NCBI GenBank assembly: GCA_964647565.1
Contig: CAZYIM010000032.1
Location: forward strand, 1 to 33,481
Origin: an uncultured Methanosarcinales archaeon
GTDB lineage: Archaea; Nanobdellota; Nanobdellia; Woesearchaeales; CAZYIM01
DNA: 33,481 bases
Direction of reading: 5' to 3'
Shown: positions 294-17,191 of the stretch, in pieces
How the letters are laid out: every line of letters starts with the position of its first letter
Position numbering within the stretch: the first letter of the stretch is position 1
Notes under the pieces: model-generated
What the model saw: the letters and a program-made list of their open reading frames with translations, nothing else
The model's database searches: none
What the model was told of the DNA's origin: nothing
Program-made: the position numbers and the translations under genes

Positions 294-377
294 ATGCGAA
301 AACAAGAGGTTTCCAATATCCTGAGAAATTTAAAAAAAAATATCTGGGACATTGTAAATCTTGGAGGTTTCCAATGA
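294..377 (+). CDS. Putative 27-aa upstream ORF (MRKQEVSNILRNLKKNIWDIVNLGGFQ)
   Basis: Begins downstream of the BRE/TATA at about 244-260. Its stop overlaps the next start as ATGA (374-377), the usual translational-coupling geometry. Confidence 0.4.
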   Translation: MRKQEVSNILRNLKKNIWDIVNLGGFQ

Positions 378-1294
378 AAAGAAAAGTAGTACAACAAGGC
401 CCGGCCACTCTGATGATCAGCTTACCTGCAAAATGGGTGAAAGAAAACAACATAACCAAAGGAATAGAACTCGAGATAACGCTCGAGAAAAACCTTCTGA
501 CCATAAGGACAGAGGGCAAAAAAATAAAAAAGGTAAAAGAATACGATGTAACAGGATTCTCAACCAACACAATAAGTTCATTGGTATCTGCACCCTACAA
601 GATGGGCTATGATCAGATCACCTTAACCTATAAGAAAGACATTCAAAAAGGCTTTGTCCAGCAGTTCGCTATGGAACACTTCCCCAGCTTTGTGGTCATG
701 GAACAGACCCCCACAAGCTGTAAGATTAGGAGCATATCAGAAGAGATGGCCTCAGAATTCACCCCAACCCTGCGAAGAGCCTATCGTGTAACTCTAGCTA
801 TGGGAGAAAGTCTTGTTGCGATGCTAAGGGAAAAGAACTACAAGGAATTAAAAACAGTGAACTCCCATGAGCTGACCAACAACATATTGACTAATTTCTG
901 CGAGAGGATCATCAACAGGTTTGGCTATGAAGAACCAGAAAAGAACACATTCATGTATGCTCTTGTCTGGAATCTTGAAAAGTTGTGTGATGACTATAAG
1001 TATATCGCGAACTTCATGAACAAGGCAAATCCCAAACAAACTCATCTAAAAAAAGAGGTGATTGACTTTATTGAAGAATGCAACGAACTGCTCAGGGAAT
1101 ACTACCAGATCTTCTTTGATTATGATATTGAAAAGCTCGATGCTAACATGATCAGGATAAAAGCTGCCAAGAAGAAGGTGCTGGATCTCATGAAAGATAA
1201 GAGCTATGAAGAGATCATAATTCTGCATTACCTCTCAGGATTTCTACTAAAACTCTATGACAATAAAGGATGCACAATAGCAGTGTACTCCTAA
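374..1294 (+). CDS. AbrB/MazE-type DNA-binding domain plus PhoU-like helical domain regulator
   Basis: N-terminal RKVVQQGPATLMISLPAKWVKENNITKG is the archaeal AbrB-PhoU signature. C-terminal NFCER...NLEKLCDDY is PhoU-like. RBS GGAGGT at 363-368. Confidence 0.85.
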   Translation: MKRKVVQQGPATLMISLPAKWVKENNITKGIELEITLEKNLLTIRTEGKKIKKVKEYDVTGFSTNTISSLVSAPYKMGYDQITLTYKKDIQKGFVQQFAMEHFPSFVVMEQTPTSCKIRSISEEMASEFTPTLRRAYRVTLAMGESLVAMLREKNYKELKTVNSHELTNNILTNFCERIINRFGYEEPEKNTFMYALVWNLEKLCDDYKYIANFMNKANPKQTHLKKEVIDFIEECNELLREYYQIFFDYDIEKLDANMIRIKAAKKKVLDLMKDKSYEEIIILHYLSGFLLKLYDNKGCTIAVYS

Positions 1295-1317
1295 GAACGC
1301 AACTAAGATTTAAGAAC

Positions 1318-4300
1318 TCATGGAAGGCTATAATCCCTGTTCTTCGAATAGACCTTGAAAAGGGTTTTATACTGGGCGTTCAAAGACGACCTACCCTTCA
1401 CACCTAGAAAATCAGCAATCTCCTCATGAGCAATCCCCTCTTTAAGCAAACGAACCATTCTAAACTCTCTTAGTTTTTTGGCTGTAATATTGCCGTTTTT
1501 ACCATAACACCTTTGATGCCAATGTTGGACAATATAATCATTAGAGACCCGGTCGCAGGCTTTGTTGACTGCACCTATATCCAAGGGCAGCTCTTCACCT
1601 TGCCATTGTGTTGCAATAAGAGGTTTTTTGCTGTTATGCTTCCTAATACCCCTTGAACCAAGATATTCAGACAGATCCGCTGTCAACGCCCCTGATATTT
1701 GAACCTCTCTAGGCAGGATAGTTTCAGAAAGACCAGGCAAGCTGACTTTATTGTTTTCAAAATCAACATCAGCTGGCTTCAACTGTGTTAGTTCACTAGG
1801 TTTACATCCTGTCTCATAAAGCATTCTGACTATAAATTTCTCTTTATCACGATTTGAATTATTAAGCAACATATTAACAATATCTTCCTGAACTTCAGCC
1901 CTCTCTGAGAAAACTTCCCTTAAATATTCGTAATTATAATAAAACACATCTTTAGTTCTTCTTATTCTCTTATCAAACAATAGCCTGTGCTTCTTGACCA
2001 CTTTATGCTTTATCTCGAACATATCCTTCAAGCCCTTAAGCTGGGATTTCAAGGACTTATACTGTTGACCATAATGATATCCCTCAGATGTTACATTATG
2101 ATAATAGGAACCATGCTCATTTTCTATCCTGTCAATGGCCTGCAGGGCATCCTCAACCCACTCTTTCCTCGCAGGCTCCTTGATAGGCCTGGAACAGAGA
2201 CCGCCGTAGAAATCAAGTGCTCTCAAAACCACAGCATTCAAAAACTGCAGATGGAACTTCTTGTAATTAAGCAGGTTAGTATTGTCTCCTGTCGCCTCCA
2301 TATGCCTTCTGTTGTAATCCTGAACATAAAATTTTACAAATTCATCAATGATTCTCCAGTTTTCCTGAGCATCATCAACAAAGTTCTCATAAACTAAAAG
2401 ATTGACAAGATCAAGAACAATAGGTGCATAAGGTCTTCCATCAGTGTCCCAATGGATAACCTCTCCAGCATCTGAAATACAAAAATTATCTGGCTTAGCA
2501 TCCCTACTAAACGCACAGATACAATCATCCAGGCTAGCATACACAGGCATCAGGTTCTTGTTCATACGCGTCAAAAATCCATCCCATTTCATATTCCTAA
2601 GACCCTTTCCAACCTTCTCCATTATCTTGGATTCAAGATGCACAACATTGTTTTCTTCTTTTTCAGGAAGTAAATAGTGGACTTTTACCATCTCCTCGAC
2701 AACCTTCTTCGCGGCACACATATAATTTAGGTCCTTGTCTCTAATATATTTCAAAAGAGATTTGCCTTCGTCAATAAACTCTGTGACCAGAATGTTGTTG
2801 TTCGCCAGATAACTCAGGTGTGCAGGGACATTACAGCCAATCGAAGCAAGCGCATTATAAGACGCCTCTGTGGCCTTAACCTGAGAAGAGCTATCCATCA
2901 TCTTGGTGAAGATCGAGACAATCTTGATTTTAGCGTTGTTATCAAAATTCGGCAATCTTATATCAACCCTGTAAGATCCTCTGTTTTGAGAATCATCAGA
3001 CAGTATAAGAGTCTCTTCTGTTGCCAGGGAATGATAACCGTGCTCCGCTGCAAACTGTCTAATAAGTTTCATGTCCCTTCTTTTGAAATCAATATCCTGG
3101 ACTTTTTTCATGGAAAGAAAGAAATCATCGGTAAGAATGTAATTGTTAAAGAGCTTGTTCCACTTTTTCATGCCTAATCTGCATTTAAGCACCTGTTTTC
3201 TTGTCTGATCCTGGATTGTCCGAAAATTATCCAAGTCTCCAGCTTTCAGCCCCAAAATAGATAATCTGACATTTTTTAGGTATTTCTCACCAAATAACCT
3301 TTCCAGATCCCTGTTATGAAGAAAGTAATTTTCAATAGCATCATTTCGTTCTGAAACAGTATGAGGGGATAAGCATCTGACCCGCTGATCAAGCCGATCC
3401 TGAAAATGCTTTGGAAACGAGCTGAAAAAATCAACCAAAGCTTGTTTATGATACCACTCGCACAGCAAAGGTACCTTATGGTGATGCTTTGTGCTTTTCT
3501 TATAAAAATGGAAAGCTCTTTGAGCTCTTTCAGCATGTGTAAGATGATCCCTATACAGAGGATCAAGCAGCATCTTGCTAACCTCTTTTGCATTTATAGT
3601 TTCATCAAGCTGCCAGGTTTCAGGTACGACTGTACAAGCAATGTCAACTAATTGTTGGAGATAAGTGCTATCGCTTGCCTCAATTAGCTCACCATACTGC
3701 TGATGCTTTTTCAGCTCGTCAGCCACCTTCTTTGTTATCTGTCTCCTTTTCACATCATCTCTACTCATCTTGATTTGCCTAAAAGAAGGTATGTCAGTTG
3801 TCTTGAGCCTCCATTTCATGTCTTTGGCACTCTTGAACCTGAAATCTTTTCTTATCTGATCTTCAAGACCATACTCTGCATCATGCTCATTGACCCAGTC
3901 AACAAAATGCTGGCTCTTGCAAAACCTGTACTTGGCCTGGGAAGCACCCCAGAAAAAACCCATATTGATCATAGAAGGATCTCTGTTAAAACGCATAAGG
4001 TTCTTTCTCTCAAAAAAATGTGAAATCTCAATGATATCCTTAAGGCTCTTACCCTGTCTGAGATAGCTTGAAAACATCTCTTTGATAGCGCGTAGGCCAG
4101 GAGTATCATCTCCATTGATCCACTTGCCAGACCAATTGCTCGCGGGTGCAATGTGGCTAATGAAATGCTGGTTTCCGACGCCCTCATAGAATTTCCTGAC
4201 AACAGGATCAGGATGCTCCTCTAAAAATTTTCGCACAAAGCCTGCGAATTGGCTATCAGAGAAATATTTATTCACAACAGCAAATCTATAATTTCTATTA

Positions 4301-5739
4301 AAGAAATTATTTTCTAATAATTTCGTCCTGAATTTATCAAAAATTGAATCATCATAATCCAGATTCAAGCGATTCCTAAAAACATGATCTAAAACCACAA
4401 AATTCTTCCTGGCTGCAAGGCCGTTTTCTAAAGCAGCCTTGTTAGTCAACATCCCAGTTAAATTCTCTCTTTTAGTCATTTCCATGGATTTCTCAAAATA
4501 AGTGATCAGCAATTCAGGGTTGAAATTATGATCCTGAGCCAGATATTCCTGCTTCAGCGTCTTCATATCCTGACCCTTGAACCTCCATCTGGCCTGGTTA
4601 TGATAAAGAACATATTGAGAGTTACTGCTGGTCATGTAAGAGATAGCCTTTAGTAAGATTTCATCGCTCAACTGCTTGGGTGCCGGCGCCTCAACATATT
4701 CCATCTCACTATCCTTAAGATCGCTCTTAAGATGCTCAACAAGAAGAGCCTCATCCACAAAATGCTTGAATCTTACCTTATCCTTGGCAAGGGAATTCAG
4801 ATTTTCCCTGATTGCTTTAATTACCCTTCTTTCATTCTCTTTTGAACTGTTCTTCAAGTTTCTGTAAACCTGGCTAGCGTTAGCTCCATATTTGATTTCA
4901 AGATCTGTGTCACAAAGCGACCTATATGATCCTGCTACAATCTCATCGACTGACATACCGTTTTTGGCATGAGCCAAAACTACCTCTCTGAAATATTTTT
5001 CACCTAACTCAAGGTCAGGCTTGCCTTTATAAGTGATCCAGTGCTTGAATCTTGGAAAGTGATAGATCTCTAGATCCTTATATCTTGCTCTAACTTCAGG
5101 ATCAACAGAATTCCTAAACAGTTCCTTGAATATCTGGGATGTTGAGTAATAATGAGGATTCATGAGATGCTCTGGGAAATTATCAATGATAGAATCCTTG
5201 AGATTCATGATGGAATCGTAATTGAAGTATTTTGTGTTGAAGAGACCTAGCAAGCTATCGTCATACCCCCCAAATTCTTTCTTGACATACTGATCAAAGA
5301 CTATCTTGGCACGCCTCCACCCTGTAAGGATGCCCATCTGATCATCATTGTCAAAGAAATTATGAGGAAATTTGACCTTATTCTTCACCCTACCTCTTTT
5401 TGCGAGACGATTAGCATACACTTTGTCAAATATACGCAATACCTCTGCTCTTGGTGTTGGCCCGTAGTTTAGGATATCCTTATTATCCCAAGATAATCGA
5501 GAGTATTTCTTTTTTGATTTGGATTCTGCGTCTGCACGGATATTTGCCTGCAAAAGACTGATGGTTGGAGTTGTTGAATGGAATATTCTGGCTATCTCTT
5601 CAGCTGTATAATGTCCAAATAGAACTATAAGATCGTTTTCTGGCAAACTAGGAATGTCTTTGTGTGAGAGACGGTCTGGCTTTAGCTCCCTCTCAAGCAA
5701 CTTCATTTCTAGAGTTGTATCCTCTGTTTTATCAGACAT
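1318..5739 (-). CDS. 1473-aa multidomain protein: HTH-like motif, duplicated central region, APH/protein-kinase-like domain, C-terminal tyrosine recombinase-like domain
   Basis: Long uninterrupted ORF. Kinase motifs IFTK, TE, LVTEFI, RDAKPDN, HWDTD, DLVNLL. Recombinase boxes RMLYETGCKPSELTQL and ITAKKLREFR...IADFLGV...AQY. Confidence 0.8.
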   Translation of the reverse strand: MSDKTEDTTLEMKLLERELKPDRLSHKDIPSLPENDLIVLFGHYTAEEIARIFHSTTPTISLLQANIRADAESKSKKKYSRLSWDNKDILNYGPTPRAEVLRIFDKVYANRLAKRGRVKNKVKFPHNFFDNDDQMGILTGWRRAKIVFDQYVKKEFGGYDDSLLGLFNTKYFNYDSIMNLKDSIIDNFPEHLMNPHYYSTSQIFKELFRNSVDPEVRARYKDLEIYHFPRFKHWITYKGKPDLELGEKYFREVVLAHAKNGMSVDEIVAGSYRSLCDTDLEIKYGANASQVYRNLKNSSKENERRVIKAIRENLNSLAKDKVRFKHFVDEALLVEHLKSDLKDSEMEYVEAPAPKQLSDEILLKAISYMTSSNSQYVLYHNQARWRFKGQDMKTLKQEYLAQDHNFNPELLITYFEKSMEMTKRENLTGMLTNKAALENGLAARKNFVVLDHVFRNRLNLDYDDSIFDKFRTKLLENNFFNRNYRFAVVNKYFSDSQFAGFVRKFLEEHPDPVVRKFYEGVGNQHFISHIAPASNWSGKWINGDDTPGLRAIKEMFSSYLRQGKSLKDIIEISHFFERKNLMRFNRDPSMINMGFFWGASQAKYRFCKSQHFVDWVNEHDAEYGLEDQIRKDFRFKSAKDMKWRLKTTDIPSFRQIKMSRDDVKRRQITKKVADELKKHQQYGELIEASDSTYLQQLVDIACTVVPETWQLDETINAKEVSKMLLDPLYRDHLTHAERAQRAFHFYKKSTKHHHKVPLLCEWYHKQALVDFFSSFPKHFQDRLDQRVRCLSPHTVSERNDAIENYFLHNRDLERLFGEKYLKNVRLSILGLKAGDLDNFRTIQDQTRKQVLKCRLGMKKWNKLFNNYILTDDFFLSMKKVQDIDFKRRDMKLIRQFAAEHGYHSLATEETLILSDDSQNRGSYRVDIRLPNFDNNAKIKIVSIFTKMMDSSSQVKATEASYNALASIGCNVPAHLSYLANNNILVTEFIDEGKSLLKYIRDKDLNYMCAAKKVVEEMVKVHYLLPEKEENNVVHLESKIMEKVGKGLRNMKWDGFLTRMNKNLMPVYASLDDCICAFSRDAKPDNFCISDAGEVIHWDTDGRPYAPIVLDLVNLLVYENFVDDAQENWRIIDEFVKFYVQDYNRRHMEATGDNTNLLNYKKFHLQFLNAVVLRALDFYGGLCSRPIKEPARKEWVEDALQAIDRIENEHGSYYHNVTSEGYHYGQQYKSLKSQLKGLKDMFEIKHKVVKKHRLLFDKRIRRTKDVFYYNYEYLREVFSERAEVQEDIVNMLLNNSNRDKEKFIVRMLYETGCKPSELTQLKPADVDFENNKVSLPGLSETILPREVQISGALTADLSEYLGSRGIRKHNSKKPLIATQWQGEELPLDIGAVNKACDRVSNDYIVQHWHQRCYGKNGNITAKKLREFRMVRLLKEGIAHEEIADFLGVKGRSSLNAQYKTLFKVYSKNRDYSLP

Positions 5740-5802
5740 TTTGACACGTTATCAAGATAAATTGAATTTTATTACTTATTAGTAATAAAATGGGTTTTAT
5801 CA

Positions 5803-5817
5803 TTTATAAAGTTTTCG
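5803..5817 (-). promoter_or_regulatory. BRE+TATA promoter for the 1473-aa gene
   Basis: Minus strand reads CGAAAACTTTATAAA, the same BRE-TATA pattern found upstream of the genes starting at 7767 and 11366. Confidence 0.6.
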
Positions 5818-5847
5818 CTTTTTGACGACTAAAACGTAGTAAAATAG

Positions 5848-5861
5848 AAAACTATTTAAAT
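5848..5861 (+). promoter_or_regulatory. BRE+TATA promoter for the GTPase leader region
   Basis: GAAAACTATTTAAAT, 22 nt upstream of the ATG at 5884. Confidence 0.55.
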
Positions 5862-5883
5862 CTGTAAAAACCCTAAAAACAAC

Positions 5884-5976
5884 ATGAACGCAGCAAATAG
5901 CCATAAAATACTGGAATTCAACGCAGTAGCTAGGCTGCAAATCATTTCTGACTTTGGAGCCGGCCGAGCAAATTAG
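5884..5976 (+). CDS. Putative 30-aa leader peptide (MNAANSHKILEFNAVARLQIISDFGAGRAN)
   Basis: The ATG is at the leaderless-start distance from a TATA box, and the stop is followed immediately by a long hairpin (5979-6027). Confidence 0.35.
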   Translation: MNAANSHKILEFNAVARLQIISDFGAGRAN

Positions 5977-6046
5977 GCTAGCGACAGCTATCCACACGAT
6001 CCATTATATGTGATAGCTCTATCGCTAACTTCTCATTGTTTTATTC

Positions 6047-6132
6047 TGCCCGATGATGATAAACCGGTGCGTTAGAGCTCTATTCCGCATCCAAGCAAGA
6101 GTTCAAATATGACACTAAACTGGCTGAGGGCA
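6047..6132 (+). ncRNA. Candidate C/D-box sRNA / k-turn element
   Basis: Terminal stem TGCCC (6047-6051) / GGGCA (6128-6132). C box ATGATGA (6053-6059) and D box CTGA (6124-6127) sit in k-turn geometry. Internal hairpin GAGCTCT/AGAGTTC. Confidence 0.55.
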
Positions 6133-6174
6133 ATTATTTTTACATCAAATCCGAATAACCAGGAGGTGCATAAA

Positions 6175-7101
6175 ATGCCCATGTCACACATCATCCAAAA
6201 ACAGATCATAAAAAACAGGATAAAAGGAAAAAAAGGAAAACAAAGAACAGATGAATTAAACCAGATACTCGCAGAGTTGCCCAATTTCAACTCAGGACCC
6301 TACGTAGTACTGAGAAAATGGATTGAAGAACAGATAGAGAAAACGCAAACAAGAAACAAGATTAAGCATAAAGAATACCTGACAGTTGAAAAGGAGGGTG
6401 AAGCACAACTCGTCATAGTTGGCCCGCCCAATATCGGCAAAAGCTCTCTGCTCAAAGCAATCTGCGACAAGCAGATAAGAATCGGAAATTATGCCTTTAC
6501 CACAACAATACCAATAGCATCCACAATGAAATACAGCAACATCGAAATTCAATTGGTTGAAGTTCCAGGACTAATAGAGGGTGCAAATGAAGATAGAGGT
6601 AAAGGCAGGAGATTGCTTAATGTGATCAGGACAAGCGACGGAATAATATACATGCTCGATCTGTCCAAGCCATTGAATGAATTCAAAAATATCCTCCATG
6701 AAATACATAAAGCAGGCATCAAAAAGAAAAGCATCATAATTGCTAACAAAGCAGATCTACCAGGAACCCGCGCAGCCTATTATAAGTTGCTGGAGGAGTT
6801 TGAATCAGTCGTACCTATATCCGTAGCCTCGAAACAGAATCTTAGCACCCTAAAAAATAGAATCTGGAAAATGACAGATCTAATCAGGATATACACCAAT
6901 AAAGAGGATGAAAAACCAGTAGCGCTTCCAAATGGCAGCACAGTGAAAGACTTTGCTAAAAAGATACATAAGGATTTCATAAATAGGTTTAAGACTGCAA
7001 GAGTTACAGGAAATTCAGCAAAATTCGATAAGCAACAGGTAGGATTGGATCATATACTCGAAGATGGAGATATAGTTGAATTAGAATTAAGGAAATCGTA
7101 A
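6175..7101 (+). CDS. DRG/OBG-family GTPase with C-terminal TGS domain
   Basis: G1 GPPNIGKS, G2 YAFTT, G3 EVPG, G4 NKAD; TGS domain TVKDFAKKIHKDF...QVGLDHILEDGDIVE. Start moved to the ATG at 6175 because of RBS AGGAGGTG at 6161-6168. Confidence 0.9.
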   Translation: MPMSHIIQKQIIKNRIKGKKGKQRTDELNQILAELPNFNSGPYVVLRKWIEEQIEKTQTRNKIKHKEYLTVEKEGEAQLVIVGPPNIGKSSLLKAICDKQIRIGNYAFTTTIPIASTMKYSNIEIQLVEVPGLIEGANEDRGKGRRLLNVIRTSDGIIYMLDLSKPLNEFKNILHEIHKAGIKKKSIIIANKADLPGTRAAYYKLLEEFESVVPISVASKQNLSTLKNRIWKMTDLIRIYTNKEDEKPVALPNGSTVKDFAKKIHKDFINRFKTARVTGNSAKFDKQQVGLDHILEDGDIVELELRKS

Positions 7102-14304: not shown

Positions 14305-14673
14305 TTAAAACTTGCCAACAACCCAGCCGCCAGCGTATCCTATTGCCTGGCCAATAAAAGATCCTATTCCTGTTGTGGCAGCCACCTTTGTGCCGACCAC
14401 CACAGGAACAAAGGCTCCAAGCTCTCTGTCACCTTTAGCAGCATAATATGCAAACTGTCCTGCGTAAGGTAAGGCTGAAGCCCCGGCTGCAGCAGCAGGC
14501 CCAACTGAGACAAGCGGACCTATGCTCGGAGGCGTAGGATTTCCATTTCCATGACAAAAACCATTGTAGGCGCCAAGACCTACTGATGCCAGGATGCTGG
14601 CACCTGCTGTTGCAATACCGAGAACATGAGGTACGATGTCCATTGATTTGTCGATTATGTTTCCTAGTCCCAT
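14305..14673 (-). CDS. Glycine-zipper small membrane protein (paralog 5)
   Basis: Gly/Ala-rich and hydrophobic; GAYNGFCHGNGNP and C-terminal GQAIGYAGGWVVGKF. RBS AGGTGA overlaps the upstream stop. Confidence 0.75.
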   Translation of the reverse strand: MGLGNIIDKSMDIVPHVLGIATAGASILASVGLGAYNGFCHGNGNPTPPSIGPLVSVGPAAAAGASALPYAGQFAYYAAKGDRELGAFVPVVVGTKVAATTGIGSFIGQAIGYAGGWVVGKF

Positions 14674-14682
14674 CTCGATCAC

Positions 14683-15006
14683 CTAGATATATTTACCAAG
14701 TACAGATCCTGTAATCTGTCCTGCAATCTGCATAACAAGGCTTCCGATCCCACAAACTCCTACCCCACTCGCCATTGCATGGAATTCGCTCGGAAACATG
14801 TCGGTTCCGGGATCTTCACCATTCATCGTCAATAATCCTGCAATCGAACCATAAAATCCGCCTGCGATCGGATATCCGAATGAGGTTCCAAGATCAACTG
14901 CAGTTGATATCGGATTTCCTTGTGATTGGTTGTATCCTTTCCAAAAGCCTAATGCTCCTGCACCAAGGACAATAGGCGCGTATGCTAGTGTTCTTTTCCA
15001 GTTCAT
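14683..15006 (-). CDS. Glycine-zipper small membrane protein (paralog 4)
   Basis: LGFWKGYNQSQGNP...AGQITGSVLGKYI. RBS AGGTGA overlaps the upstream stop; ATG at 15006. Confidence 0.8.
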   Translation of the reverse strand: MNWKRTLAYAPIVLGAGALGFWKGYNQSQGNPISTAVDLGTSFGYPIAGGFYGSIAGLLTMNGEDPGTDMFPSEFHAMASGVGVCGIGSLVMQIAGQITGSVLGKYI

Positions 15007-15015
15007 TCTGATCAC

Positions 15016-15342
15016 CTATATGTACTTACCAAGCACTGAACCAGTCAAGTATCCTGCGCCTTGTGCAACTAAGCCAACCACTCCGCCAGCCGCGGCACCA
15101 AATAATCCGCCAATTCCACTCATAATACCTGCTGCTGCAAAAGAGTTAGCCCCTTCCATTCCATCTCTTGCACCAATATCTGCACCAACTAAGCCTCCTG
15201 CAATTGGTGTTCCATAAGTTATCAAAGCATCAATTCCTGCAGGCAATGGATGACCATCTGCTGCCGCATTTCCTTTCCAATATCCAAGTGCAAACGCACC
15301 AATCGTACCAACTGTTGCCGCTATTACTGATTTGTATCCCAT
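15016..15342 (-). CDS. Glycine-zipper small membrane protein (paralog 3)
   Basis: MGYK..IAAT.GT.GAF.LGY.KGNAAA.G.PLP.GIDA.ITYGTP...AGYLTGSVLGKYI; RBS AGGAGGT. Confidence 0.85.
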   Translation of the reverse strand: MGYKSVIAATVGTIGAFALGYWKGNAAADGHPLPAGIDALITYGTPIAGGLVGADIGARDGMEGANSFAAAGIMSGIGGLFGAAAGGVVGLVAQGAGYLTGSVLGKYI

Positions 15343-15404
15343 TTTTTTACCTCCTAAGTTTTTTTACGAAGGGTGCCAGAAATTAGTTGTAATTTCTCAG
15401 CATC

Positions 15405-15725
15405 CTAGATGTATTTACCAAGGACAGAACCAGTAAGGTGTCCAAGACCTTGTGCGACCAAACCAACAGTCCCGCCAATTGCGGCTCCAAATCCGCCATC
15501 TATCATGGCCAACAATCCACCTGCAATTCCACCTTCAGAAGCTCCATGTTCAGCACCTATAAGAAAACCACTAATAGTACCTATAACAGGCGTTCCATAG
15601 GTGATTGCGGCATCAATTCCACCTGGCAACGGATTTCCATTTGCCGCCGCATTTCCTTTGTAATATCCTAGTCCAAATGCTCCAACAGTTCCTAATGTTG
15701 CAGCTATCGTAGTTTTATATCCCAT
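15405..15725 (-). CDS. Glycine-zipper small membrane protein (paralog 2)
   Basis: Closely similar to paralog 3 at both termini; RBS GGAGGT before the ATG at 15725. Confidence 0.85.
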   Translation of the reverse strand: MGYKTTIAATLGTVGAFGLGYYKGNAAANGNPLPGGIDAAITYGTPVIGTISGFLIGAEHGASEGGIAGGLLAMIDGGFGAAIGGTVGLVAQGLGHLTGSVLGKYI

Positions 15726-15742
15726 TTTTTTACCTCCGAGTT

Positions 15743-16123
15743 TTATATGCACGCTCCAAGCAATTTTCCTGCTTGATAACCAGTAAATGAAAGTACACCG
15801 TTTGCAATCTTACCAACTGTAAACTTACGAGAAGTTGTCTTTCTGTATCCTGAATTCATTTGAGGAAACACACGACGAGTGACTGCGGTGTAAGCCATCC
15901 CAGGCATTCTTTTCAGATGATCATTCATATTGTAATCAAGCCCAACACCCTTAGAATGACAGACGCCTCTAACTCCGTTTGTTACTGCAGATCCTAAATA
16001 CATACCGAGAACAGTAGGCAGGTAAAGTGCCTTGATTGCAGAACTCCCTATTTTCTGAAATAAAGACGATTTGTGTGTGTCTGTTTTTGTTTTTTCATCC
16101 AATGATTGTTTTTTATCGCTCAT
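15743..16123 (-). CDS. Divergent glycine-zipper family protein (paralog 1)
   Basis: NGVRGVCHSKG aligns with NGFCHGNG of paralog 5. C-terminal TGYQAGKLLGACI aligns with GYLTGSVLGKYI. RBS GGAGG. Confidence 0.7.
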   Translation of the reverse strand: MSDKKQSLDEKTKTDTHKSSLFQKIGSSAIKALYLPTVLGMYLGSAVTNGVRGVCHSKGVGLDYNMNDHLKRMPGMAYTAVTRRVFPQMNSGYRKTTSRKFTVGKIANGVLSFTGYQAGKLLGACI

Positions 16124-16285: not shown

Positions 16286-17191
16286 ATGAGAAGGAAAGTC
16301 GTAAAGCAAGGACCCTCAACATTGATGATCTCACTACCGTCTGCATGGGTCAAAACATATGAGATAACCAAAGGCAGCGATCTGGAGGTAGAAGAACAAG
16401 AGAAAAGACTTCTGATATCAACTGAAAGATCTGTCCAGAAAGAACAACTGGAGGTAGATATCGCCGAATTATATCCAATGAATATGGCAACTGTAAAGGC
16501 ATTATACAAGGCAGGTTACGATAATCTCAAGATAACATTCTCAGACTCAAAAAAAATACTAGACATTCAAAACGCTCCGCGAGAAGAGATCACCGGATTC
16601 GAAATCACAGAGCAAGGTTCAAACTATTGCATCGTGCACAAGATTGAAGAAGGAGTAATGGAAGGTTTTGAACCCATCCTAAGAAGGACTTTCTTGCTGC
16701 TCCTGACCATGGCAGAGAAATCAATAATCTCAGTCAAGGAAAAAGATCTTGACGAATTAAAACAGCTCGCTATGCTTGAGACCAGCAACAACAGGTTTAC
16801 CACATACTGCCTTCGACAACTGTCAAAAACAGGTTACAAGAAACCGAACAAACTACAGTTCATCTATATGGTTGTCGATAAACTTGAGAAAATCGCCAAT
16901 GAATACAAACTATTGCTGGAATACCTGGCAGACAATCAGAAGAAAGACTTATCTGAAGAGACCTATGAATATTATGAAAAAGTAAGTCAGATGATGAGGA
17001 CTGTGTATAATATCTTTTATGATTATGACAAGAAGCATCTTGTTAAATTAGGTAAACTAAAAGAAGAACTAAACGAAAACGCAAACAAAAGACTCGAGAA
17101 TACAGGAGATGTAATCAGCATGCATCATTTAATGACCTTGGGAGGACAGATATTTGAGCTTGCCGAACCATGCATTTGCATCCACTTCTGA
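16286..17191 (+). CDS. AbrB/MazE-type plus PhoU-like regulator (paralog of 374-1294)
   Basis: RKVVKQGPSTLMISLPSAWVK, YKAGYD, TYCLR, KLEKIANEY. Leaderless start after GAAAAATTTATATATA. Confidence 0.85.
   Translation: MRRKVVKQGPSTLMISLPSAWVKTYEITKGSDLEVEEQEKRLLISTERSVQKEQLEVDIAELYPMNMATVKALYKAGYDNLKITFSDSKKILDIQNAPREEITGFEITEQGSNYCIVHKIEEGVMEGFEPILRRTFLLLLTMAEKSIISVKEKDLDELKQLAMLETSNNRFTTYCLRQLSKTGYKKPNKLQFIYMVVDKLEKIANEYKLLLEYLADNQKKDLSEETYEYYEKVSQMMRTVYNIFYDYDKKHLVKLGKLKEELNENANKRLENTGDVISMHHLMTLGGQIFELAEPCICIHF

Follow-up and report, generated by a model that had tools for sequence, protein, structure and literature searches.

A kinase-like domain joined to a degenerate tyrosine-recombinase-like domain in a single giant gene of a Woesearchaeales archaeon

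Introduction

YihE/SrkA is a protein kinase with the fold of the aminoglycoside phosphotransferases (APH), and AbrB of Bacillus is regulated by Ser/Thr kinases. Here we describe a giant archaeal gene in which a kinase-like domain of predicted APH type is followed, in the same reading frame, by a degenerate tyrosine-recombinase-like domain, and which adjoins a gene for an AbrB/SpoVT-domain protein. The gene occupies positions 1318..5739 on the minus strand of a 33,481-nucleotide (nt) stretch of contig CAZYIM010000032.1 (assembly GCA_964647565.1, an uncultured archaeon placed by GTDB in the order Woesearchaeales); this whole stretch is referred to as the window. Two described systems bear on the recombinase part. 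SSV1-type archaeal integrases are active enzymes that use a KxxR box, i.e., a Lys in place of the catalytic His-II (PMC8371274). TnsF of the Tn6022-like Tn7 transposons carries an inactivated tyrosine-recombinase domain that serves DNA recognition (Faure et al. 2023, PMC10293859). Both domain families and DNA-binding inactive recombinase domains are already known, and it is the joining to a kinase that had no match in the sequence collections searched.

The frame (P0001) is uninterrupted and encodes 1473 amino acids (aa) plus a stop codon. It consists of an orphan N-terminal region (aa 1-914), an APH/choline-kinase-type domain (aa 915-1245) and, after a short linker, a recombinase-like tail (aa 1272-1473). 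A previous reading of the DNA made from the letters alone (the sequence-only reading) had described such a fusion of a kinase fold with a degenerate tyrosine-recombinase domain, and the frame as well as every motif that it quoted were recovered at the positions given. The architecture is real, and no described counterpart was found in the sequence collections and literature searched. The literature search, which left most subscription journals outside its coverage, yielded no description of a kinase fused to a tyrosine recombinase, and a search on DPANN kinases gave nothing relevant, judged by title or abstract start.

Results

A Kinase-Like Domain of Predicted APH Type

The kinase-like domain (window 2005..2997, minus strand) is not recognized directly. 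No Pfam or NCBIfam kinase model matches the giant protein, the Pfam protein-kinase family (Pkinase) included, and aa 901-1265 gave no Pfam family even at E<=10. An APH/choline-kinase-type kinase fold of aa 915-1245 is indirectly but strongly supported by four independent lines, namely homologues, language-model features, a structural model compared with Foldseek and a profile search. A HMMER search with aa 66-1265 against 1.84 billion representative sequences returned 48 non-self proteins, and all of them were confined to aa ~810-1245. Pfam was run on 38 of these, the other 10 being fragments or short proteins of 160-378 aa, and APH (PF01636) was detected in 21 of the 38 at E<=0.01 and in 15 at or above the cut-off of 23.2. 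Likewise, when aa 880-1265 were used to search the ESM Atlas, 26 of the 30 nearest clusters were APH (score 0.94; 190 of 256 features in common).

An AlphaFold2 model of aa 901-1262, built on a 63-row alignment, reached a mean predicted local distance difference test score (pLDDT) of 85.5 and a predicted template modeling score (pTM) of 0.87. Foldseek matched this model to 262 PDB chains at E<=0.001. The best match was 3csv, a putative aminoglycoside phosphotransferase (E=4.9e-8, TM 0.56/0.62), and further leading matches were corramycin phosphotransferase (8agy), YihE (1zyl), choline kinases and APH(3')-Ia. Comparison of the untrimmed family profile (alignment A3) with PDB sequences was dominated by tetratricopeptide repeat (TPR) proteins, and a trimmed profile (A4) was therefore used, which matched the choline kinase LicA (4r77, E=4.6e-4). 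The model, its APH/choline-kinase matches and the homologues with Pfam APH bear out the kinase fold that had been expected near aa 920-1200.

The catalytic residues of the C-lobe are intact. The catalytic loop RDAKPDN (aa 1079-1085, window 2485..2505, minus strand) provides D1080, K1082 and N1085, as judged from the motif and the family alignment, and HWDTD (aa 1096-1100, window 2440..2454, minus strand) holds D1098 as the metal-binding Asp, equivalent to that of DFG. Across 21 relatives, D1080 is kept in 20, N1085 in 18 and D1098 in all 21; the D1098 column is the sole invariant column of alignment A3 and is 21/21 in A4. The remaining motifs IFTK (aa 943-946), LVTEFI (984-989) and DLVNLL (1110-1115) are present as well. 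The sequence-only reading had likened the loop to that of Ser/Thr kinases. The resemblance to RDxKPxN holds, and it arises because position 1082, a His in 20 of the 21 relatives, is a Lys in the giant protein. No Pkinase match was found, and the best structures are APH-type.

The Giant Gene Belongs to a Conserved Kinase/AbrB-Regulator Pair

Relatives of the kinase domain, with similarities down to E=3e-20, were found in 27 of 401 sampled genomes of the order, the own genome included (~7%), with one copy each. The giant protein is a single copy in its genome (G000, 2.68 Mb, 86.9% complete). Frames of the family are mostly ~590-760 aa long, as in the 700-aa example at L002 1432-3534, and none apart from the giant protein exceeds 973 aa. 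The relatives carry hydrophobic N-terminal stretches, as read from their translations and not computed, and show sub-threshold Pfam TPR matches, while the full-length family profile matched TPR proteins with E=3.5e-29. Their C-terminus follows directly on the kinase domain and corresponds to aa ~1245 of the giant protein; the combined alignment A2, which misaligned integrases onto the kinase, was used for these kinase C-termini only.

In 15 of 19 loci of such relatives, a gene for an AbrB/SpoVT-domain protein of ~306 aa lies tail to tail with the kinase gene. One of the remaining four has an AbrB gene upstream, and three have none within the DNA examined. The giant gene shows the same convergent layout, with a 306-aa AbrB/SpoVT-domain gene at 374..1294 on the plus strand (Pfam PF04014, 27.3 bits against a cut-off of 24.7). 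The AbrB family was present in 70 of 101 sampled genomes of the order and gave 17 matches in the own genome. Among 100 genomes, the four best non-self AbrB matches were the kinase-adjacent genes of G087, G018, G004 and G083. The giant gene is the local version, i.e., the positional orthologue, of a conserved kinase/AbrB-regulator pair. It had been called solitary, which is contradicted by this partner, because the AbrB gene adjoins it convergently just as in the 15 loci. Prediction of a complex between the kinase domain and the AbrB neighbor yielded no verdict, at a score of 0.00.

The neighborhood also speaks to the proposal that the gene is a one-gene defence or conflict system, in which the kinase would act as the effector of a DNA-sensing pseudo-recombinase. 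The size of the protein, its several domains, its orphan region and the origin of one domain from a mobile element would suit such a system, and singletons are, by inference only, typical of fast-evolving conflict genes. However, PADLOC-DB 2.0 returned 0 families for the giant protein, its kinase relatives and its recombinase-like relatives alike, and the other neighbors in the window are housekeeping genes (a DRG-type GTPase, GrpE, an ABC transporter and methionyl-tRNA synthetase) that offer no defence-island context. Together with the position of the kinase within a conserved kinase/AbrB pair, this makes a defence role very improbable.

Two further observations were made on these families. 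The ~306-aa AbrB/SpoVT-domain family is strongly expanded in the own genome, with copies at 374-1294 (plus strand), at 16286-17191 (plus strand) and in 15 further places, and its C-terminal part gave only a sub-threshold PhoU match, in one paralogue. Among the kinase relatives, L031 (745-1500, minus strand) and P0035 (aa ~230-454) have C-terminal extensions of ~250 aa that are mutually related (E=2e-24). These extensions have no relation to the recombinase tail and may represent a second, degenerate kinase-like lobe.

The Tail Is a Degenerate Recombinase Catalytic Domain

The tail (aa 1272-1473, window 1321..1926, minus strand) matches the Pfam family Phage_integrase (PF00589) with 33.6 bits against a cut-off of 27.1. 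The match covers profile positions 9-165 of 172 and an envelope of aa 1285-1457 (window 1369-1887), in good agreement with the integrase domain that had been predicted near aa 1295-1465. The NCBIfam model of archaeal XerA is matched at positions 92-241 of 263 only and with 46.4 bits against a cut-off of 220, and XerA of P. abyssi (4a8e) is the sole solved relative of the tail by sequence (E=3.1e-4). No core-binding domain was found: the XerA match starts at position 92 of 263, and what precedes it in the giant protein is the kinase C-terminus and the linker. By these matches, the tail is to be regarded as a catalytic half alone and not as a XerA orthologue.

Alignment with XerA and canonical Xer-like proteins showed how far the active site has changed. 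Arg-I is replaced by K1313 (TGCKPSE, aa 1310-1316), the catalytic Lys of the beta-hairpin by Leu, His-II by K1421 and His/Trp-III by V1447 (LGV, aa 1445-1447), while Arg-II is kept as R1424. The candidate for the nucleophilic Tyr is Y1457 (window 1369-1371), which is one column off the canonical Tyr in alignment A1 and faces a gap in the larger recombinase alignment; Y1464, another Tyr of the tail, is aligned to a conserved Tyr of the short stand-alone family described below. These substitutions agree with the earlier description, which had named the change of Arg-I to Lys, LGH turned into LGV and a Tyr present at 1369-1371.

The tail is related most closely not to Xer proteins but to stand-alone, catalytic-domain-only proteins of ~165-200 aa from the same order (e.g., L012 1225-1776, 184 aa; L013 1270-1809; L022 1222-1782; loci L042-L071). 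A word-based search with the tail found no short relative at E<=0.001, and the family was found instead by profile searches of genomes. By hhalign, the tail and a 25-member alignment of the short family (A7) match with 98.3% probability (E=1.1e-14). Both share the LYETGC motif, Arg-II and the C-terminal Tyr, identity to the nearest member is 29%, and three members themselves score 41-69 bits with PF00589. Residues were counted in 26 members, to the exclusion of another whose genome is unpublished. Arg-I is kept in none (Thr in 13, Ser in 9), Arg-II in 23, His-III in one and the canonical nucleophilic Tyr in two. Judged by these residues, members of the short family cannot work as recombinases through any mechanism known.

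The tail is probably non-cleaving too, because Arg-I is a Lys, the hairpin Lys is absent, His/Trp-III is a Val and a core-binding domain is missing, and because its nearest relatives form a family without Arg-I and mostly without Tyr. The domain had previously been described as domesticated and possibly non-cleaving. The second part stands, at the strength just given. Domestication within the giant protein is unsupported, because the degeneration had taken place in the stand-alone family, prior to the fusion.

A different view would take the tail as a still-active, if unusual, tyrosine recombinase of the type K...KxxR...Y, with the kinase regulating DNA rearrangement or traveling with it, as in an inversion switch or a mobile element. 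Catalytic-domain-only recombinases do exist, namely the FimB/FimE-type invertases, and the short family gave weak NCBIfam invertase matches. Moreover, R1424 and a near-canonical Y1457 are kept, and the exchange of Arg-I for Lys is conservative. The KxxR box, which the sequence-only reading had named for archaeal integrases of the SSV type, is in print for active SSV1-type enzymes, although these retain Arg-I (PMC8371274). Set against this, the tail has none of Arg-I, the beta-hairpin Lys and His/Trp-III, and the Tyr is absent from 24 of its 26 nearest relatives. Direct or inverted repeats around the gene, which might mark recombination sites, are only chance-like 14-30-mers, the gene is a single copy, and its conserved chromosomal neighborhood speaks against a mobile element; the absence of flanking att sites or a mobile-element signature is in line with what had been noted before. 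We consider an active recombinase very improbable.

The surroundings of the short family form a pattern of their own. At 21 of 28 loci, the short-family gene is followed, with an overlap or a gap of up to ~70 nt, by a co-directional gene whose product begins with a hydrophobic segment and is often >400 aa long. Of 22 such downstream proteins, 16 have no Pfam family, and the others are Ig-like (Filamin) or of the Laminin_G type. This layout recalls a FimB/FimE-type switch, yet with a dead enzyme. Open frames of 326-368 aa with more than one match to the short-family profile were seen in five places: four are tandem double matches (G208:C21:5894-6802, G083:C12:15784-16626, G208:C63:4738-5622 and L070, G334:C1, 982-1977), and in L066 (G397:C77, 1450-2454) the second match came from a separate search.

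The Two Domains Are Joined by a Short Linker and the Junction Is Contiguous

Between the usual kinase end (~aa 1245) and the start of similarity to the short family at about aa 1272 lies a Lys/Arg-rich linker of 26 residues (aa 1246-1271, window 1927..2004, minus strand). A normal kinase end, a linker and a short-family start are the pattern expected when a co-directional downstream gene is fused by loss of a stop codon, and the arrangement suggests that the fusion probably arose in this way, in front of a downstream short recombinase-like gene.

Since the source is a metagenome-assembled genome, we asked whether an assembly or sequencing artefact might have joined two genes. Each of four public runs on marine or seawater metagenomes (X1-X4, from two studies) had been assembled by itself, and its contigs were aligned to window 1000-6200. 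Contigs of X1 (1255-2424) and X2 (1727-2414) cross the linker, contigs of X3 (1653-1959) and X4 (1653-1957) reach into the junction region, and all four do so with 0 differences and without indels, joints or loose ends. Jointly they run from the stop codon through all of the tail and the linker into the kinase C-lobe, and a separate contig of 6112 bases encodes identical aa 1-1026. Read depth in these runs is only ~3-5, which leaves the artefact some room. The contig evidence is good, though not fully independent, and a chimera or frameshift at the junction is unlikely; as an explanation of the gene as a whole, an artefact is barely credible. The fusion, for which an assembly chimera had been named as one possible refutation, has held up in this respect.

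The N-Terminal Region Is an Orphan

The N-terminal region (aa 1-914, window 2998..5739, minus strand) is predicted to be mostly helical and has no hydrophobic segment. This also holds for the whole protein, in which the top 19-residue hydropathy mean is 1.16. A word-based search of 5.8 billion clusters returned a self fragment only, and in the HMMER search no non-self match began before aa ~810. A search of the own genome revealed no paralogue, nothing usable came from the ESM Atlas, and PHROGs gave only a sub-threshold match of unknown function. At E<=10, Pfam placed no family in aa 1-500 and only a chance-level match of 13 bits in aa 501-900. A single-sequence AlphaFold2 model of aa 1-914 was unusable (pLDDT 39).

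An HTH-like (helix-turn-helix) segment had been proposed at aa 44-64 (window 5548..5610, minus strand). The sequence is there, and it has no match to an HTH family. Given the Pfam result for aa 1-500 and the quality of the model, an N-terminal HTH was not upheld. The sole HTH-like Pfam signal, HTH_23 (E=0.027), falls at aa 1420-1448, i.e., inside the recombinase tail.

A weak internal repeat was seen by blastp, with copy 1 at aa 142-272 (window 4924..5316, minus strand) and copy 2 at aa 444-574 (window 4018..4410, minus strand), with 22% identity over 148 columns and a pairwise E of 0.01. A 32-column resemblance raised the idea that these repeats are extra degenerate recombinase-like domains, which was rejected (hhalign probability 0.2-0.5%). 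Derivation of the N-terminus from the TPR half of the kinase relatives by divergence was rejected as well (0.09%).

Other Features of the Window and the Genome

The giant gene and the gene for the DRG-type GTPase are divergently oriented, and their starts are separated by a spacer of 369 nt (5740-6108). The spacer contains a TATA-like element, TTTATAAA, at 5803-5810 on the minus strand, 64-71 nt upstream of the ATG. The promoter of its own that had been ascribed to the gene corresponds to this element, which was read in the sequence as a consensus match only and carries no evidence of function. A second copy of the spacer was not found in the own genome, and its predicted fold is no better than that of shuffled sequences (z -1.72). 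At 14305-16123 on the minus strand, five successive small open reading frames of 108-126 aa encode glycine-rich, hydrophobic proteins without a Pfam family. Three of the five share the C-terminal GSVLGKYI, and their sequences suggest a tandem array of small membrane-protein paralogues.

Relatives within the order have small genomes of ~0.6-2.3 Mb. The own genome, with 2.68 Mb at 86.9% completeness, exceeds all those sampled, and it is the sole representative of its family among the genomes compared.

Discussion

Our preferred explanation, held tentatively and with a little less than even confidence, is that the giant gene encodes a regulatory kinase peculiar to its lineage, with a tail that binds DNA but does not cleave it. 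The three-part protein is a lineage-specific fusion of an orphan N-terminus, an APH/choline-kinase-type domain and a recombinase-like tail. Its second part (aa 915-1245) is the positional orthologue of the TPR kinases of the order that are paired with an AbrB regulator, whose N-terminal TPR sensor half would have been exchanged for a soluble, helical orphan region of 914 aa. The third part (aa 1272-1473) would be a once-separate downstream gene, joined through loss of a stop codon. The tail would no longer cut DNA and might serve as a DNA-binding or protein-docking module, the kinase would be active, and the giant protein might work in the same regulatory circuit as the neighboring AbrB-type DNA-binding protein. 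For example, the AbrB neighbor or another DNA-bound target could be phosphorylated while the giant protein is held on DNA.

A more specific form of this idea is a DNA-tethered kinase, which would be a so far undescribed kind of archaeal signaling protein. The dead recombinase domain would read a DNA site or shape and thereby bring the kinase to chromatin, the kinase would phosphorylate the neighboring AbrB-type regulator or another DNA-bound target and the orphan region would act as sensor. We regard this particular version as unlikely. In a bolder variant, the tail may still nick DNA and the kinase may gate the nicking.

Several points weigh against the preferred explanation. The putative DNA binding, the kinase activity and the link to AbrB are what we infer. 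The N-lobe of the kinase is divergent: the beta-3 Lys of the family aligns with T945, K946 being one position off, and the assignment of the alpha-C Glu is ambiguous in the alignment, so that the domain could be a pseudokinase. Unlike most of its short relatives, the tail keeps a Tyr near the catalytic position and a Lys at Arg-I, and some residual DNA cleavage is conceivable from these residues. One of the runs that cross the junction at low depth may be the source of the assembly. Finally, the fusion stands alone, and no second case turned up among the 1.84 billion representative sequences. Among the 401 genomes of the order, recombinase-like matches outside the giant protein all lie in frames of <=430 aa (the tallies include some genomes flagged as unpublished), PF00589 is present in 0 of the 38 kinase homologues scanned, and pattern scans of metagenome and genome contigs gave generic integrase pieces only and no second fusion. 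In G003, G152, G055 and G230 the kinase and short recombinase families lie on different contigs, and in no other genome examined are the two families neighbors. With a single known instance, selection for keeping the two parts fused is not demonstrated.

It is this distribution that lends weight to a recent neutral fusion by stop-codon loss, in which each half would go on working, or decaying, by itself and the fusion as such would serve no purpose. Singleton occurrence across all collections searched, partner families that are unlinked in other genomes and a linker of ~26 aa placed exactly between the normal kinase C-terminus and the short-family start are all what such an event would leave. 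Furthermore, a stand-alone short-family copy was not found in the own genome (86.9% complete) with the tail as query. On the other hand, a frame of 4.4 kb has been kept open at ~39% G+C, and the G+C content at third codon positions of the three protein parts (0.36-0.45) lies inside the range of the neighboring genes (0.37-0.50) and bears no mark of a recent insert. With 29% identity to the nearest short-family member, acquisition was not recent, though the fusion itself could be. Neutral fusion is in our view rather unlikely, though more probable than any of the other rival explanations.

The sequence-only reading had suggested a search for the same fusion in other genomes, with homologues that are always split into separate genes as a refutation, and had raised a one-gene system for defence. 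Homologues of both domains were found in separate genes everywhere searched, and consequently the fusion is a singleton and not a recurrent system; with 0 PADLOC families, the defence system found no support either. Should the fusion have a function as such, it would provide the first example revealed by our searches of a kinase linked to a DNA-binding module of recombinase origin, and it would offer a handle on regulation in small-genome archaea, in which signaling is almost unstudied. Independently of the fusion, two recurrent and uncharacterized features of the order have been exposed, the kinase/AbrB-regulator pair and the dead, catalytic-domain-only recombinase-like family in front of genes for proteins with hydrophobic segments. 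Both are more testable than the singleton fusion.

Comparison With Known Systems

The nearest comparison is with the TPR-APH kinases of the order, with which the giant protein has in common a homologous kinase domain and the convergent AbrB neighbor. It differs from them at both ends: the hydrophobic/TPR half is absent and an unrelated N-terminus of 914 aa stands in its place, and a recombinase-like tail is added where the members of the family end after the kinase. With the APH/choline-kinase-like enzymes of PF01636 it shares the bilobal kinase-like fold, as far as the model allows this to be judged, together with the catalytic Asp and Asn and the metal-binding Asp. In contrast to these enzymes, it has no direct Pfam match, RDAKPDN carries a Lys for the His of the family, and the domain has a long helical C-terminal extension and sits within a protein of 1473 aa. 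The likeness to eukaryotic-type Ser/Thr kinases is limited to the RDxKPxN (HRDxKxxN) loop, whereas the best structural matches are APH-type.

On the recombinase side, the short family and the tail differ in setting, the former being encoded by separate genes before genes for hydrophobic-segment proteins, while the latter is fused to a kinase and has the convergent AbrB gene as its downstream neighbor. Most members of the short family also lack the canonical Tyr, of which the tail keeps one. With archaeal XerA and PF00589, the tail has in common a catalytic-domain match above the Pfam cut-off, Arg-II and a near-canonical Tyr. Unlike XerA (4a8e), it lacks the core-binding domain and the hairpin Lys, and Lys, Lys and Val replace Arg-I, His-II and His-III, respectively. 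The SSV1-type integrases and the tail both have a Lys for His-II in the HxxR box, but the former keep Arg-I, are full-length, reside on mobile elements and are active (PMC8371274). TnsF differs from the giant protein in being bacterial, fused to a zinc finger, part of a transposon, equipped with both recombinase domains and free of a kinase; it is nevertheless the precedent for a dead recombinase domain that is retained as a DNA-recognition module (PMC10293859).

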